Source: a virus
Lineage: Duplodnaviria; Caudoviricetes
Length of the DNA stretch: 50,390 nucleotides
Reading direction: 5' to 3' (one strand)
IMG/VR virus record: IMGVR_UViG_3300025296_000020
Span: 1-50,390 of that record
The position numbers were made by a program, and so were the translations under genes. Numbering within the stretch: position 1 is the first letter of the stretch; each line of letters begins with the position of its first letter. Positions 10,830-42,176 of this stretch are shown here, one piece after another. The notes beneath the pieces were generated by a model. That model saw only the letters and a list, made by a program, of their open reading frames with translations, was not told the DNA's origin and ran no database searches.

Positions 10830-11717
10830 ATGGCTGTGTCGGCATCTAAGGATTTTCAGCCTAATGTAGCAGAATACATAGAAGAGGCTTTTGAACGTTG
10901 CGGGTTGGAACTACGCACTGGTTACGATGCGAGAACCGCACGTCGATCCTTGAATTTTCTGTTTGCGGATTGGGCTAATCGTGGTCTTAATCAATGGACC
11001 ATTGAGCGGGTTACTCAAAACCTTATTGTTGGAATCCTTGAATATCCTGTGGGAACCATAACCCTTAGTGTAGCGGCCAGTGGTAGTTTCACTATAGGGG
11101 AAACGATCACCGGGGGTACTAGCGCGGCCACAGCGGCAATTATTACCGCGCCTACAGCCACCTCCATGACTATTACGGTGCCTTCCGGAACTTTTGTAGC
11201 CACAGAAACTATTACGGGTGGCACAAGTGGGGCTACCACTACGGTTTCTTCCGCTGTATCTCTTGAAAACGTTCAAGCTACAATTGATACCTTGTCTGCG
11301 GTGATTAGGCGTAGTGGACAGGATATTTCCATTAATAGCGTTAGTCGCGATACCTACCTGACGATTCCGGACAAAACTACAACGGGCCGACCTGTTCAAT
11401 ATTATGTAAATCGTCAAATTACGCCGGTTGTTTTAGTGTGGCCGTCTCCGGAAAATAGTACGGATCAATTAATCTATGATCGATTGGTTCGTATGGATGA
11501 TGCGGATACATCAGCCAATACGGTTGAGATGCCGTTCCGTTTTTACCCCTGCTTGGCTGCTGGATTGGCTTATTATCTGGCGCTCAAACGAGTGCCGGAT
11601 AAAGTTGCTCTTCTTAAAGGATTATATGAAGAAGAGTTTGAACGAGCGGCTCAAGAAGATCGTGACATTCCCTCTATTAGTCTGGTTCCAACATATACTT
11701 TTTTAAATGCCGGGTGA
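10830..11717 (+). CDS. Putative head-tail adaptor protein with a Thr/Gly-rich inserted domain
   Basis: IEEAFERCG...ARRSLNFLFADWANRGLN N-terminus, TGRPVQYY, PFRFYPCLAAGLAYYLA; internal GETITGGTS duplication. Confidence 0.6.
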   Translation: MAVSASKDFQPNVAEYIEEAFERCGLELRTGYDARTARRSLNFLFADWANRGLNQWTIERVTQNLIVGILEYPVGTITLSVAASGSFTIGETITGGTSAATAAIITAPTATSMTITVPSGTFVATETITGGTSGATTTVSSAVSLENVQATIDTLSAVIRRSGQDISINSVSRDTYLTIPDKTTTGRPVQYYVNRQITPVVLVWPSPENSTDQLIYDRLVRMDDADTSANTVEMPFRFYPCLAAGLAYYLALKRVPDKVALLKGLYEEEFERAAQEDRDIPSISLVPTYTFLNAG

Positions 11718-35611: not shown

Positions 35612-35830
35612 CTACTTCTTGAGCTTCCACAAGATGTACGGTTCCCCGCACGGTTCCTCGCTGTCCACGTCGATGCACTGAAACACAATGGACTCTGCAT
35701 CAGCGTCCGGTTTCTGGTGGCCCACGTATTCCCACGTGGCTCCATCGTGACGCTCGCTTCTGACTTGCTCAAAGAAAGTGAAATGCTGTTCGTAAAACAG
35801 TAACGATATCAACCCTATAACTATGGACAT
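35612..35830 (-). CDS. 72-aa hypothetical protein with short hydrophobic N-terminus (MSIVIGLISLLF...)
   Basis: Start placed at ATG 35830 after AAGGA; the longer 108-aa call merely reads through the repeat array. Confidence 0.55.
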   Translation of the reverse strand: MSIVIGLISLLFYEQHFTFFEQVRSERHDGATWEYVGHQKPDADAESIVFQCIDVDSEEPCGEPYILWKLKK

Positions 35831-35834
35831 GTTT

Positions 35835-36421
35835 TTTCCTTTCCAGTCCTTGTCTTTCCAGTCCCTATCAGACCGCGCCAAATCATAACCGTGTCTGCCA
35901 TGCCGCGCCAAATCAAACCCTGCCCGATCTCGCCTCATCTTTCCCCATCGCGCCGGTACACGCCTGTCATACCTGACCTTGCCGCGCCGTATCGGAACCT
36001 AACCCGACCTTGCCGCACCATATCCTGCCTTATCTGCGTTGTCTTGCCGCGCCGTGCCCACCCCATCGCGCCGGTACACGCCTGTCATACCTGATCTTGC
36101 CATGCCGCTCCGAATCGCGCCATATCTCACCATACCGGCGTTGCGTTGCAGCGCCAACCCATATCACACCTTACCGCACCTCGTCATACCTGCGTTGTCA
36201 GTCCGCACCAGTCCAAACCAGATCAAACCCGGCCCCATCAAACCGCATCCCGCCTAACCTGCCGTGCCGAGCCATATCAGACCCTACCGCTCCGAACCGC
36301 TCCCGACCTAACCATACCGCTCCCGACCGCACCTTGTCTGCCGTGCCGCTCCAAATCACATCAAACCCAACCGGACCCGTCCCGACCTCATCAAACCGCA
36401 CCCAACCGTGTCTGCCTTGCC
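35835..36421 (-). ncRNA. Period-5 (GGY/GAY/GGA)-NN repeat array; putative guide-RNA array (VIPR-like)
   Basis: Minus strand reads GGC AA GGC A GAC AC GGT TG GGT GC GGT TT GAT GA GGT CG GGA CG GGT CC...; roughly 115-120 pentamers; begins 1 nt after the upstream stop codon; ~9 segments delimited by single-nt spacers. Confidence 0.85.
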
Positions 36422-36422
36422 A

Positions 36423-36926
36423 CTACTCCGCTGCTTGTAGGACAGCGGGAGGAGATTCCAGAATAGAGATGATTCGGTCAAGAGGTTGTGTAGTCAGCCC
36501 TGCCGAAGATAGAGCAACTGAGTATCTTTCTATCCATGCTTTCAAATCGACAACACTTTGGCGGCGTAGTTCCTCAAGATGATCCGGATCGTCAGGATCG
36601 AACATGTAGTAGCCAGTCCCCTCTTGTCTCGTTGATGAGGGAGAGAGAAGAAGGGGAACCTCTCTTTCCTGCACTTTAATTTTTCCTGTGCGAGAAATAT
36701 GCTCTACCTCAAAAACCAACTTGAGTCCTTGGACGAACATCCGCGCTTCCCATGTTCTTTGTTGGTTAGCAGCTTTAGTATCGTCCCACGTAAAATATCC
36801 GTAAGCGGGGTGGTCAGGCCCCACGGACCTGACCTCCTCTACAAACGTTCCAGGACTATAAATCCCGTTATGATTAAGACAGAATTCTTTAACGATTTCC
36901 TGTCGTTTTTGGCGCGTCATTTTCAT
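36423..36926 (-). CDS. Accessory protein of the RAMP/array locus
   Basis: 167 aa, PDHPAYGYFTWDDTKAANQQRTWEARMFV; ATGA-coupled to the RAMP-like gene and abutting the array. Confidence 0.75.
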   Translation of the reverse strand: MKMTRQKRQEIVKEFCLNHNGIYSPGTFVEEVRSVGPDHPAYGYFTWDDTKAANQQRTWEARMFVQGLKLVFEVEHISRTGKIKVQEREVPLLLSPSSTRQEGTGYYMFDPDDPDHLEELRRQSVVDLKAWIERYSVALSSAGLTTQPLDRIISILESPPAVLQAAE

Positions 36927-37684
36927 GCGGCTTCCCTCCGTTCAACTTCCGAATTGAAGAAGTCCATTAGGTCTTCCGTATCACTGTCAGCGCACACCGG
37001 AAGCTTTAACGCTTTTTCCTGCGCTTTTCTCCCGTGATGCTTAACCAGTTCATCCCACTCGTCGTCTTGATCGTCAGCTGAAATGACGCGGAAGGAACCA
37101 AAGTTGCCTTTTCCCTTTTCCTGACGATAATCGCCTAATCCTATCAGTACCCCTGCATTGCAAAGGATGTTGAAAAGAGAAGTAAGATTAAGCTGGGGAA
37201 CGATGTAACGCATCTCAATTTCCGCCCCCCATTTAGGTATAAACGGGCGTGTCCGAATGTCAGGAGTTTTGTTAATGCCACCCTGGCGCACGATATCCAT
37301 TTTGAGATATGGAGTACCGTATAGAGGTGTCATATCTCCCGGCATGAACAAGAGGCGTTGAATTTCGGTTTTAAAAACACCCGCCGTTTCAAGAGCAGCA
37401 GTCGCCATAGCTGCCTTTACAGCGATGACCTTGAGACCCAAAGCTGTAGGACCGTCAAGAACCACTTCAGCTGCATCCCGATATTCCTGAAGAGGATCAT
37501 GTTTAATGTAGGCTTTATCCAGTTTGGATTTGCCTTTCCCGCTACCAACCAAAAATTCCTGTTTGGCCTTGGCGCTCATCCGGTTCTGATACATTGGAGT
37601 TGTTCCAATTAACCGAAGGTTACAAGCCTTTTGCGTAAGCTTGCTGACATTGATCGTCACACTTTCTTTTTTAGCTGTTGCCAT
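36923..37684 (-). CDS. Stand-alone RAMP/Cas7-like RNA-binding protein (Vipr-like)
   Basis: N-terminal strand LRLIGTTP, LGLKVIAVKAAM helix (cf. IPGSSLKGALR of Cas7-group RAMPs), thumb-like VRQGGINKTPDIRTRP, C-terminal G-loop GLGDYRQEKGKGNFGSFRV. Confidence 0.75.
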   Translation of the reverse strand: MATAKKESVTINVSKLTQKACNLRLIGTTPMYQNRMSAKAKQEFLVGSGKGKSKLDKAYIKHDPLQEYRDAAEVVLDGPTALGLKVIAVKAAMATAALETAGVFKTEIQRLLFMPGDMTPLYGTPYLKMDIVRQGGINKTPDIRTRPFIPKWGAEIEMRYIVPQLNLTSLFNILCNAGVLIGLGDYRQEKGKGNFGSFRVISADDQDDEWDELVKHHGRKAQEKALKLPVCADSDTEDLMDFFNSEVERREAA

Positions 37685-37699: not shown

Positions 37700-39136
37700 T
37701 TATTGCAACCATTCGCGGGTTTGTTCCCCCAAAATCTGATCAGCAATGTTAATCTTGCTACGCAAAGCGCGAACGATTTTTTCGTCTACGGTGGAGGGGG
37801 AGATCAGATCGATGTATGTTACTTTGCTTGTCTGCCCAATCCGGTGGGCGCGGTCTTCCGACTGAAGCCGCAATTCCAAATCATAGCTGTTGGAATAATA
37901 AATGACCGTGTTGGCGGCAGTGAGCGTTAGCCCATAGCCGCCCGTTTTAGGGTGCCCCACAAGGAACCGCAGATCTGATTGCCGATCCTGGAAAGTTTCC
38001 ACGATCTCCTGGCGCTCAGAATCCGGCGTTTCCCCGTGGAGCTTTGCAACCGCCTGTACGCTGTAGCGGTCACGCAAGGCATCAGCAATCGAACGAATGT
38101 CCATGGTCCATGTCGCCCATATGATTGCCTTACCTTGTATCTCTTCGCATAAGTCCAGAAGCATATCTAAACGCTTGGAGGGTAGCTCATGCACGACGCC
38201 TTCGTCATCCGTCAGGTGACCACAGCAAATTTGCTGTAAGCGCATGATCTGGGTGAGAACGTTTTTGGTCGTGGACAACTCCCCACTGTCCAGATGCGCC
38301 AACGCCAAATGCGTCATCTGGTCGTAAGCCTTCTTCTGTTCCTTGGTCAGTTCGATGTCCCGTTTGACATAGACCTTGTCTGGAAGGTCCAGGCAGTCCT
38401 CTTTACGGACACGGAACGAGTGCTGCTCCAATTTAGCAGTGAGTTCGTCCAGCCGTCGAAATCCGACGATGTGGTTGAAAGAATGACTTCCCAGAGTACG
38501 GCGCTGAACAATCGCGTACCGTCCCTGGAATGCGTAGTAAGAGGTGAAGCCTAGAATGTCCGGGTCCAGGAAATTCAGCTGACTGAAAAGATCCAGCGGA
38601 GACTTGGTCACCGGGGACCCCGTCAAGATACGCCTGTACCGCGCACCACGGCCCAAGTCACACAGAGCTTTGGTCCGCTTGGCTTTCCGGTTCTTGATAG
38701 TGGTGCTTTCGTCTACCACCATGAAGACATTGAATTTCTTCACGAAGAGGGAAGCTACCTCCACTCCCTTGCGGGTACTGAACGCCTCGACATTCATCAA
38801 CAGGCATTTCAACCCGTCGCCGTCCTGGAAAAGGGTGTTCAGCGACTTTCGCATGGCCTTGGTCAGGGAGGGCTTCCACAGCAGGATCTTGTTTGGAAAC
38901 CTGTCTGGGAGGTGCTTGTGGATTTCCGGCACCCAGTTGGCAATGACGGTTTTGGGCGCTACAATGAGAACGAAGTCGATTTCTTTTTCCTCATACAAGT
39001 AAGCTGCCGTGTCTAACGCGACCTTTGTCTTACCGGTTCCCATGTCCATCAAGAGTGCATATGTCGAGCATTCGGCGCTCGCGTTGAAAGCATCTTCTTG
39101 GTGTTTATAGGGCTTTGTTAAAAATTTATAATCCAT
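37700..39136 (-). CDS. SNF2-like (SF2) helicase/ATPase
   Basis: Q-motif PYKHQ, DMGTGKT, VVDEST, LTGSP, GGYGLTL, QSEDRAHRIGQ; start placed at ATG 39136. Confidence 0.9.
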   Translation of the reverse strand: MDYKFLTKPYKHQEDAFNASAECSTYALLMDMGTGKTKVALDTAAYLYEEKEIDFVLIVAPKTVIANWVPEIHKHLPDRFPNKILLWKPSLTKAMRKSLNTLFQDGDGLKCLLMNVEAFSTRKGVEVASLFVKKFNVFMVVDESTTIKNRKAKRTKALCDLGRGARYRRILTGSPVTKSPLDLFSQLNFLDPDILGFTSYYAFQGRYAIVQRRTLGSHSFNHIVGFRRLDELTAKLEQHSFRVRKEDCLDLPDKVYVKRDIELTKEQKKAYDQMTHLALAHLDSGELSTTKNVLTQIMRLQQICCGHLTDDEGVVHELPSKRLDMLLDLCEEIQGKAIIWATWTMDIRSIADALRDRYSVQAVAKLHGETPDSERQEIVETFQDRQSDLRFLVGHPKTGGYGLTLTAANTVIYYSNSYDLELRLQSEDRAHRIGQTSKVTYIDLISPSTVDEKIVRALRSKINIADQILGEQTREWLQ

Positions 39137-39146
39137 CAGATTTATC

Positions 39147-39175
39147 TTGCTTTTTCCCAGAAGCTCACATATAAG
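39147..39175 (+). promoter_or_regulatory. Putative sigma70-type promoter for the replication operon, in the divergent intergenic region
   Basis: TTGCTT(39147-52)-17 nt-TATAAG(39170-75); adjacent inverted repeat TTGAC-GGCGTA-GTCAA at 39181-39196. Confidence 0.5.
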
Positions 39176-39223
39176 GGGTTTTGACGGCGTAGTCAACCGC
39201 CAATGAAGGAAAGAGGAAACAAG

Positions 39224-40631: not shown

Positions 40632-42176
40632 GTGGAAAAGGAACTCACCAAACGATTCAGCCGTCTTTTCCGGGGCTTGAACAGAGCCTACGGCACGTTC
40701 GATATAACGGGTAAGGCAGCTAACGGCAAGCACAAGGGTAAGGCTCGTATCGTTCACGAACCACGGACCTTGAAGACTTTTGACGCCCATTTAAACGGCG
40801 AACAAGGTGTTGGCGTTGTTCCCATCAACGAGAACAACCAATGCTTGTGGGGGGCGATAGACATCGACACCTATCCCCTGGATCACACCAAGCTTATTAA
40901 CCACATCTCCCAATTGAAATTTCCCCTTGTCGTCTGCCGTAGCAAATCCGGAGGGGGACATCTTTATCTATTTCTCAAGGAAGCCGTCGCCGCCGAAAAG
41001 CTGCAAACCAAGCTGAAGGAAGTGACCTCTGAGCTAGGCTATGCATCCAATACGGAAGTATTCCCAAAACAGATCCAGCTGGTTTTGGAGCGGGGCGATA
41101 CCGGCAATTTCTTGAACCTTCCCTATTTCGATCAAGAACGTGGGTTACGATACGCCTTCAACGCTGACGGCAGTGCAGCCACTCTGGAAGAATTTCTCGA
41201 CATGGCGGAAGCGTCTGCCATTACAGAAGAAGAACTGGACAACCTCGCGTCTGAGGAAGCCGTCCAAATCGACAAGCGGCTACCGGACGGACCCCCATGC
41301 CTACAGGCTCTTTTTCGTCAGGGATTCCCGGAAGGCACCCGAAACAATGGCCTCTTTAACGTAGGCGTTTACCTACGCAAGGCGTTCCCCGATGAATGGG
41401 AAACCAAAATTCTTGAACATAATCAATTGATTATGGACCCTCCTCTGGATTTGAACGAAGTCAACATCGTAGCCGACCAATTGAAGAAGAAAGACTACCA
41501 GTATAAATGTACCGACCAGCCCATCTGTAATTTCTGCAACAAGGATTTGTGTCGCAGCCGCAAGCATGGCGTTGGAGGAGGAGCCAACACGCCCACCGTC
41601 GCCAACCTGCGTAAGTATGACAGCGAACCGCCGCTCTGGTTTCTCGACGTAAACGGCTCTCCTGTCGAACTGGATACGGAGGGTTTGCAAAAGCAGCCCC
41701 GGTTTCAAATCCTCTGCATGGAGCAAATTAATTTCATGCCCCGCACCGTGACGCGACAAGCGTGGGAAGCGCAGATGAATACGTTGCTTTCCGCCATGGT
41801 CGATACGGAAGGGGCCGTCATCACAACTTCGGACGATACCAGCATCCGGGGTCAGTTCTACGAGATGCTGGAAGATTTCGCCACGCATATGCAGACAGCC
41901 TTGGACAGAGAAGAGATCCTGCTCCGTCGCCCATGGACCAACGAAAAAGAGGACCGCACCTATTTCCGTCTCAAGGATCTGGAAGCGTTCCTCAAGCGAA
42001 ATAAATTTTTTGAGTACAAATCCAACAAGATTGCCCAGCGCCTACGGGACATGGACGGGAGGGCAGAGCAATTGAAAATCAAAGGCCGTACCGTGCGGTG
42101 TTGGTCCATTCCGGCTTACGATCAAATCGATGAGGAGTTCAATTCCAAGTTCGATGAGGAGGATGTGCCATTCTAA
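40632..42176 (+). CDS. AEP-family primase/primase-polymerase
   Basis: WGAIDID, RSKSGGGHLYL, NFLNLPY; PPCL...EGTRNNGLF and Cys cluster CTDQPICNFCNKDLC. Confidence 0.8.
   Translation: MEKELTKRFSRLFRGLNRAYGTFDITGKAANGKHKGKARIVHEPRTLKTFDAHLNGEQGVGVVPINENNQCLWGAIDIDTYPLDHTKLINHISQLKFPLVVCRSKSGGGHLYLFLKEAVAAEKLQTKLKEVTSELGYASNTEVFPKQIQLVLERGDTGNFLNLPYFDQERGLRYAFNADGSAATLEEFLDMAEASAITEEELDNLASEEAVQIDKRLPDGPPCLQALFRQGFPEGTRNNGLFNVGVYLRKAFPDEWETKILEHNQLIMDPPLDLNEVNIVADQLKKKDYQYKCTDQPICNFCNKDLCRSRKHGVGGGANTPTVANLRKYDSEPPLWFLDVNGSPVELDTEGLQKQPRFQILCMEQINFMPRTVTRQAWEAQMNTLLSAMVDTEGAVITTSDDTSIRGQFYEMLEDFATHMQTALDREEILLRRPWTNEKEDRTYFRLKDLEAFLKRNKFFEYKSNKIAQRLRDMDGRAEQLKIKGRTVRCWSIPAYDQIDEEFNSKFDEEDVPF

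Follow-up and report, generated by a model that had tools for sequence, protein, structure and literature searches.

The stretch of DNA analyzed here, which we call the window, is a 50,390 nucleotide (50 kb) virus record that carries portal, capsid, DNA polymerase, helicase, primase, and endolysin genes. All 20 of the listed holders of the window sequence are marine, aquatic, or brine metagenomes, 11 being marked as potential sources, and no RNA dataset is found among these 20. The genome is mostly plus-strand, and the locus considered here lies in a minus-strand block formed by a SNF2 helicase gene (37700–39196), the VIPR locus, and a 72-codon ORF (35612–35830). The SNF2 gene ends 15 nt before vipr (36923–37684), which encodes a RAMP-fold protein of 253 aa; the vipr stop is overlapped by an accessory (vap-like) gene of 167 aa (36423–36926). 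Both genes lie directly upstream of, and on the same strand as, an array of pentameric units (35835–36421), which is followed by the 72-codon ORF. The locus has the minimal VIPR layout, vipr and one accessory gene, in a viral genome. No Cas family was found among the scanned ORFs of the window.

The structural model of the 253-aa protein (pLDDT 85) has Csm3/Cas7 as its top folds (Foldseek E 9e-6; VIA Z 9.2, rmsd 3.7, 148 aligned). With a profile of 113 homologs, its best PDB sequence match is the Vipr protein of Escherichia phage SUSP1 (E 0.0066), and hhalign of the two proteins gives a probability of 92.6. Residues R138, D177, and R179, given as RNA-binding residues of SUSP1 Vipr in the available parts of its description (10.64898/2026.04.26.720927), align to R146, D185, and R187 here and are invariant in the 113 homologs. 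The 253-aa protein is a stand-alone RAMP protein, with RRM core, thumb, and G-loop, related to Vipr. Neither it nor its partner receives a family name from Pfam or NCBIfam. In 77 of the 82 related loci a partner homolog is located no more than 1.2 kb from vipr; among the five without one, four have less than 0.8 kb of sequence after vipr and one ends at vipr. The nearest Atlas neighbors of the partner are viral clusters without names, and its model (pLDDT 49) was too poor for a structure search. Distant homologs of vipr and partner also stand side by side in Mycobacterium and Gordonia phages (for example NC_051648.1:37391–38193).

Read on the minus strand from 36421 to 35835, the array parses into 119 units, each of a triplet and a two-base spacer (NN). 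GGY makes up 67 of the triplets, and the 52 others (44%) are mostly GGA, GAT, and GAC. The period-5 self-identity of the array, scored in 200-nt windows, is 0.53, the maximum of the whole stretch (mean 0.246, sd 0.039). The original prediction described an array punctuated into about nine segments by a one-base phase shift. Our parse reproduces its segment starts at 36412, 36338, 36259, 36190, 36136, 36082, 36034, 35964, and 35895, each at a one-base spacer, agrees with it on the lengths (74, 79, 69, 54, 54, 48, 70, 69, and 61 nt), and contains all six junction types that it had quoted.

A two-unit lead-in (36413–36421), of the sort that opens many related arrays, ends in the first junction and is followed by segments of 10–16 units. 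Segments 1 (36339–36412), 2 (36260–36338), 3 (36191–36259), 4 (36137–36190), 5 (36083–36136), and 8 (35896–35964) are predicted guides. Segment 6 (36035–36082) opens with a copy of units 1–4 of segment 8 and holds an additional one-base step, GGT-G, at 36059 (before 36058), which reads A, like the junction motif, in runs X12 and X13. There are two 3-base slips, at 35994 in segment 7 (35965–36034), whose 3′ end is approximately a copy of the end of segment 5, and at 35885 in the terminal segment 9 (35835–35895), which has a purine-rich end just before the start of the 72-codon ORF. Neighboring guides share 1 nt and have neither a spacer nor a tail between them, which is the layout called staggered. 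A search between the segments for tails, hairpins, and ribozymes found none (no inverted repeats and no Rfam matches), and the counts of promoters and terminators are at the level of shuffled sequence.

Related loci (n = 82) yielded 51 distinct arrays, 36 of them nearer (Vipr identity 50.5% or more) and 15 distant. The junction motif is conserved in the nearer arrays: they contain 302 register breaks, of which 214 are GGC/CGC-A, the rest being 60 one-base steps of other kinds and 28 breaks of other lengths. In a separate count the junction base is A in 139 of 163 cases. The 15 distant arrays have instead a 9-nt GGY-GGTY-NN junction (in place of 10 nt), which occurs 88 times and again produces a minus-one shift. 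The motif varies with the Vipr clade, being GGC-A|G where Vipr identity is at least 50% and GGY-GGTY-NN in distant arrays, and the minus-one shift is kept. This second dialect is found in L054, L061, L067, L072, L079, and other loci at 47–50% Vipr identity, in several of which the array sits between vipr and the partner gene.

VIPR guides read their targets with the NN positions and skip one base, mostly at the wobble position (10.64898/2026.04.26.720920), and candidate targets were sought with this rule. In the viral scan the first eight NN of segment 8 gave 73 exact matches. Of these, 52 fall within a motif of DUF5906 primase-helicases, WVVPAG..ERR, with the guide NNs in the sense of the gene. 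The other 8-NN cores gave 11 (segment 1), 7 and 9 (segment 2), and 18 (segment 3) viral matches, none with a convincing extension (best 23/28, 24/30, and 22/26, the 24/30 of segment 2 not being significant). A genome scan with segment 8 gave five matches, all in the primase motif and three of them at 24/26 (L216, L218, and L220), and 52 viral contigs match this motif at 20–23/26. No metagenome match was obtained with the exact pattern of the 12 NN that open segment 8, and versions of this guide in related phages reach 26/26 and 32/34, so the copy in the window may be drifting. Segment 8 is distal, is common to L008, L010, and L014, and retains its 24/26 match to the target. The phage has an AEP primase of its own (40653–41486), which shares 31–34% identity over about 290 aa with the N-terminal region of the targeted primase and is without the targeted motif. 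In run X20, five of the seven listed array differences fall at NN positions (35881, 35921, 36216, 36251, and 36279), and the change at 35921 brings segment 8 nearer to its target; the two others (35937–35938) are triplet positions near the contig end.

The segment 1 pattern, relaxed with two relatives, gave 24 metagenome matches, 23 of which lie in a single family of HGGxSTG genes (NF041373), with the guide NNs antisense to the gene. Segment 1 matches the gene at 27/28 in L196, L197, L201, and L207 and at 26/28 in G356. With at most three mismatches, the exact pattern was found in 1 genome among 401 from a single class and in 2 among 78 from a single order, the reversed control giving 0 in each, and a collection scan of the order of G002 gave 1 of 46. 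A viral scan for the HGGxSTG gene returned distant relatives only. The skipped base falls at codon position 3 in both window guides. The matches indicate that in these two of the nine segments DNA targets are specified by the NN positions, one base being skipped after each NN. Close to the HGGxSTG gene, on its upstream side, a conserved site (L216:6713–6751, also in L201) that lies outside any evident ORF is matched by guides of L010, L014, L015, and L057 and probably by one of L004.

For the other seven segments (2–7 and 9, among which 2–5 were covered by collection scans) no target was found. In a set of 78 genomes, segment 2 had no match (control 1) and segment 3 had one, which was in an unrelated frame; in a set of 5, segment 4 had none (control 1) and segment 5 had one. 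Neither of the two matches is a convincing target. The best matches of the segments within the phage's own genome are 19/28, 19/30, 16/26, 14/20, 16/20, 11/14, 17/26, and 15/20. The VIPR preprint reports no self-target at 80% or more (10.64898/2026.04.26.720920); the self-match of segment 5 reaches 80%, a level that wrong skips reach too.

The two predicted targets lie near each other, as each guide search showed independently. In a locus found by segment 1, a site for segment 8 (22/26) is present at a distance of 3.7 kb, and in a locus found by segment 8, a site for segment 1 (24/28) is present at 0.9 kb; in controls, skips of 0, 2, and 3 scored 17, and none of 300 shuffles reached 22/26 or 24/28. 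Among nine close arrays, 16 of 50 segments (9–20 NN) exceed all 20 shuffles, at five sites in the island; in the window 2 of 7 segments do so. Over 16 distinct sites the read positions are 95% conserved and the skipped ones 72%, a difference partly forced by the search pattern. An all-against-all comparison gave nine matches of at least 85% with skip 0 and nine with skip 1, of 158, a separation appearing only at 90% (2, 0, 0). Another comparison of skips (14, 4, and 2 of 60 at 85%) was discarded as biased, because its loci had been found with skip-1 patterns.

The island comprises a tyrosine integrase, AlpA or HTH_17, the AEP-DUF5906 primase, and the HGGxSTG gene, as pieced together from stretches none of which holds all four genes. 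It occurs in MAGs labeled with several phyla, and no structural genes were seen in the fetched stretches of the best-matching chromosomal islands. The island is satellite-like and likely parasitizes the phage. In L218 and L220 int, alpA, and prim are co-located, a PICMI-like set; the PICMI search model is defined by these three genes in the available text of PMC10803314. The island further shares with PICMI satellites, as described there, the families integrase PF00589, AlpA/HTH_17 PF05930/PF12728, and DUF5906 primase PF19263 and the placing of cargo beside the primase. It differs from them in lying outside Vibrionaceae and in carrying the HGGxSTG gene. A literature search for HGGxSTG in satellites found none.

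Several other loci deserve mention. A Schlafen group 3 helicase gene, possibly defense cargo, lies beside the island HGGxSTG gene at L304:6544–8520. At L309:1686–4470 an HGGxSTG gene (segment 1 match 25/28) adjoins a different primase (Prim-Pol, DUF5906), which is not matched by segment 8, and this indicates that island modules are shuffled. In L043, two guides (array 11362–11474) match the phage's own neighboring gene (11646–11692; gene start 11575) at adjacent sites with a one-base skip (17/20 and 16/18). The mismatches are mostly at Ser, Leu, or Arg codons for which the phage copy has the alternative codon family, and these guides may target a rival's homolog from which the phage escapes by non-wobble synonymous change.

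To see what the junction does, we took guide-target pairs selected on the guide core only, which gave 15 pairs from 37 segments, a few of them probably due to chance. In these pairs, NN 1 and 2 after the junction match at 83% and 80%, and the junction unit and the preceding segment at 10–22%; at the other end the last three NN before the 3′ junction match at 57–63% and the 3′ junction unit at 20%. Matching drops across motif junctions (24/80 after, 16/102 before) and continues across GGT-G or GGG-A steps (28/32 bases, in four arrays that represent one inherited event). In L057 there is one GAC-A step that looks canonical and does not stop the match. Since matches end at GGC/CGC-A|G junctions and cross other one-base slips, guides are likely delimited by the motif rather than by the shift alone; a shift without the motif may be insufficient, given that matches continue past GGT-G and GGG-A steps. 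The idea that the one-base shift is a boundary signal is thus supported indirectly: target matches start and stop at motif junctions, but the shift alone looks insufficient. As judged from these alignments, a segment bounded by the motif acts as a single unit in targeting.

It had also been proposed that the array degenerates with distance from the genes, with a polarity like that of leader-end turnover in CRISPR arrays. Such a polarity is not supported. The register slips are indeed distal (three of three), but a decay of the triplets was not confirmed. There are five off-consensus triplets in the proximal 59 units and three in the distal 60, and non-GGY triplets make up 41% of the former and 47% of the latter. 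TGC and GGG triplets fall in segment 4, in the middle of the array, and the GTA of segment 8 is common to L008, L010, and L014 and so is inherited rather than a recent decay. We counted polarity in 23 arrays of at least 55 units uncut by a contig end, which are not independent of one another. Off-consensus triplets are more frequent in the distal half in 7 of them and less frequent in 13, non-GGY triplets are more frequent there in 13 and less frequent in 9, and irregular steps number 7 proximal and 17 distal, 9 of them in one array.

Segments 1 and 8 are the two that are common to phages at 82–86% Vipr identity, and segments 2–5 were not found in related arrays. The close pairs L003/L006, L008/L010, and L016/L017 keep their gene order and differ internally, L017 having in addition one extra first guide relative to L016, a possible proximal gain. 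A homolog of segment 1 opens the row of guides in L014; in L057 it closes a row of four long ones. Comparison of close arrays shows guides gained and lost throughout the array. A 118-nt block (35943–36060) between 47-nt direct repeats (35943–35989 and 36061–36107, 94% alike) is present in X12, X13, X14, X18, and X19 and absent in X15, X17, X20, and L001; this indel is known from contigs alone, in which repeats may collapse. A 56-nt replacement in the phage's population is also distal. The variation of the 118-nt block explains much of the distal irregularity and indicates recombination rather than ordered addition. Divergence at NN and triplet positions (0.11–0.12 vs. 0.17–0.19 per site) was not used, as the pairs had been chosen on NN identity and the comparison is biased.

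We consider it probable that the locus is a staggered VIPR array in which the GGC/CGC-A|G overlap likely separates guides, and that at least two of these guides silence a competing satellite-like island. Transcription would proceed from the vipr-vap side, and single guides would be released through cleavage in the vicinity of the junction motif or at the motif itself, most simply by a host RNase acting at the gap where the filament loses register, with the motif helping. The guides would direct Vipr filaments with one protomer per pentamer, as in SUSP1, and the island primase and HGGxSTG gene would be silenced. Changes in the array would arise when short repeats recombine, and could occur anywhere along it. 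More speculatively, Vipr or its partner could itself cut the junction, recognizing its sequence, so that one ancestral RAMP protein would both mature its multi-guide array and carry the guides. We regard this version as rather doubtful; if it is true, junction cutting by Vipr would be a minimal forerunner of CRISPR repeat processing.

Could the transcript of such an array instead stay uncut, the shift only splitting the filament into modules on one multi-guide RNA? The absence of tails, hairpins, and ribozymes between segments fits this, as do matches that end at junctions, and sequencing in the VIPR preprint confirmed ribozyme and single-guide arrays and not staggered ones (10.64898/2026.04.26.720920). 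Pure geometry would not, however, need a junction of specific sequence (A in 139/163), matches cross one-base steps that lack the motif, and the legend of fig. S18 of that preprint, in the part available, describes staggered arrays as processed vrRNAs from positions that overlap by 1 nt. An uncut transcript therefore seems to us quite unlikely. Gene-proximal addition of segments as in CRISPR, with older ones decaying distally, would accommodate the distal position of all three irregular steps, the 118-nt indel, and the 56-nt replacement, together with the extra first guide of L017 and the 7 to 17 distribution of irregular steps. It sits poorly with the sharing of both segment 1 and segment 8 when the middle ones are not found in relatives, with the change of place of the segment-1 homolog between L014 and L057, with the three close pairs that differ internally, and with the lack of a distal excess of odd triplets in 23 arrays; and the distal segment 8 is still on target. 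We judge it very improbable.

A different question is the nature of the opponent. The guides might act on competing prophages or host-borne islands generally, and not on a satellite that parasitizes this phage: the primase motif is common in prophages (the 52 viral contigs noted above), and island and phage share no structural-gene homology. However, it is chromosomal islands carrying integrase, AlpA/HTH, and primase that give the best matches (24/26, and 26/26 for guides of relatives), and the island primase resembles the phage's own over about 290 aa, which makes this broader reading unlikely. Finally, T-run slips and non-motif steps exist in relatives and might suggest a low-complexity repeat or short coding region whose one-base steps are scars of slippage. 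This is almost certainly wrong, given stops in every frame of all eight arrays checked, a conserved junction motif, and gapped matches to conserved coding motifs far beyond those of shuffles.

The VIPR system and the stagger have already been described (10.64898/2026.04.26.720920), and the window locus shares several features with those published arrays: vipr with an accessory gene and a GGY/NN array in a phage, a 1-nt guide overlap, 10–16 units per guide, and a one-base skip at wobble. The tandem GGY/NN pentamers of the window agree with the approximately 9–16 per guide of VIPR. For staggered arrays the text and legends of the preprint report neither a junction motif nor sequencing nor any natural target, whereas here a junction motif and two predicted targets are identified. 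The Vipr of the type II system of SUSP1 is homologous to that of the window and has its G-loop and thumb residues in common with it. This system is further known from its descriptions: in the available parts of its descriptions (10.64898/2026.04.26.720927; 10.64898/2026.10.15.759431) it has one protomer per pentamer, with the triplet buried and the NN paired to DNA, silences transcription, and aims its guides at codons that are conserved in an essential gene carried by an integrated element. Perturbing GGY abolished silencing in SUSP1 (10.64898/2026.04.26.720920), and the 52 non-GGY triplets of the window count against our preferred reading, as do the seven segments for which no target was found. 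SUSP1 guides are, according to the same partial accounts, separate, with a structured 3′ tail, and target the recombinase of F5 satellites, whereas those of the window abut without tails and would target a primase and an HGGxSTG gene. There is also no detectable homology between SUSP1 vap1 and the window partner (hhalign E 0.29 with a shallow profile), and 44% of the window triplets are non-GGY. Class 1 CRISPR systems share with this locus the RAMP fold, a multi-guide array, one predicted transcript, and a short repeated boundary motif; the gapped code, the pentamer layout, and the lack of repeat-spacer structure and of leader-end polarity set the locus apart from them.

The locus gives staggered VIPR arrays natural predicted targets and a targeting unit that is bounded by the junction motif. 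The matched guide-target pairs and the two junction dialects allow a direct test of processing, and, if the predicted targets hold, the anti-satellite conflict of VIPR would extend to marine phages and a PICMI-like island.
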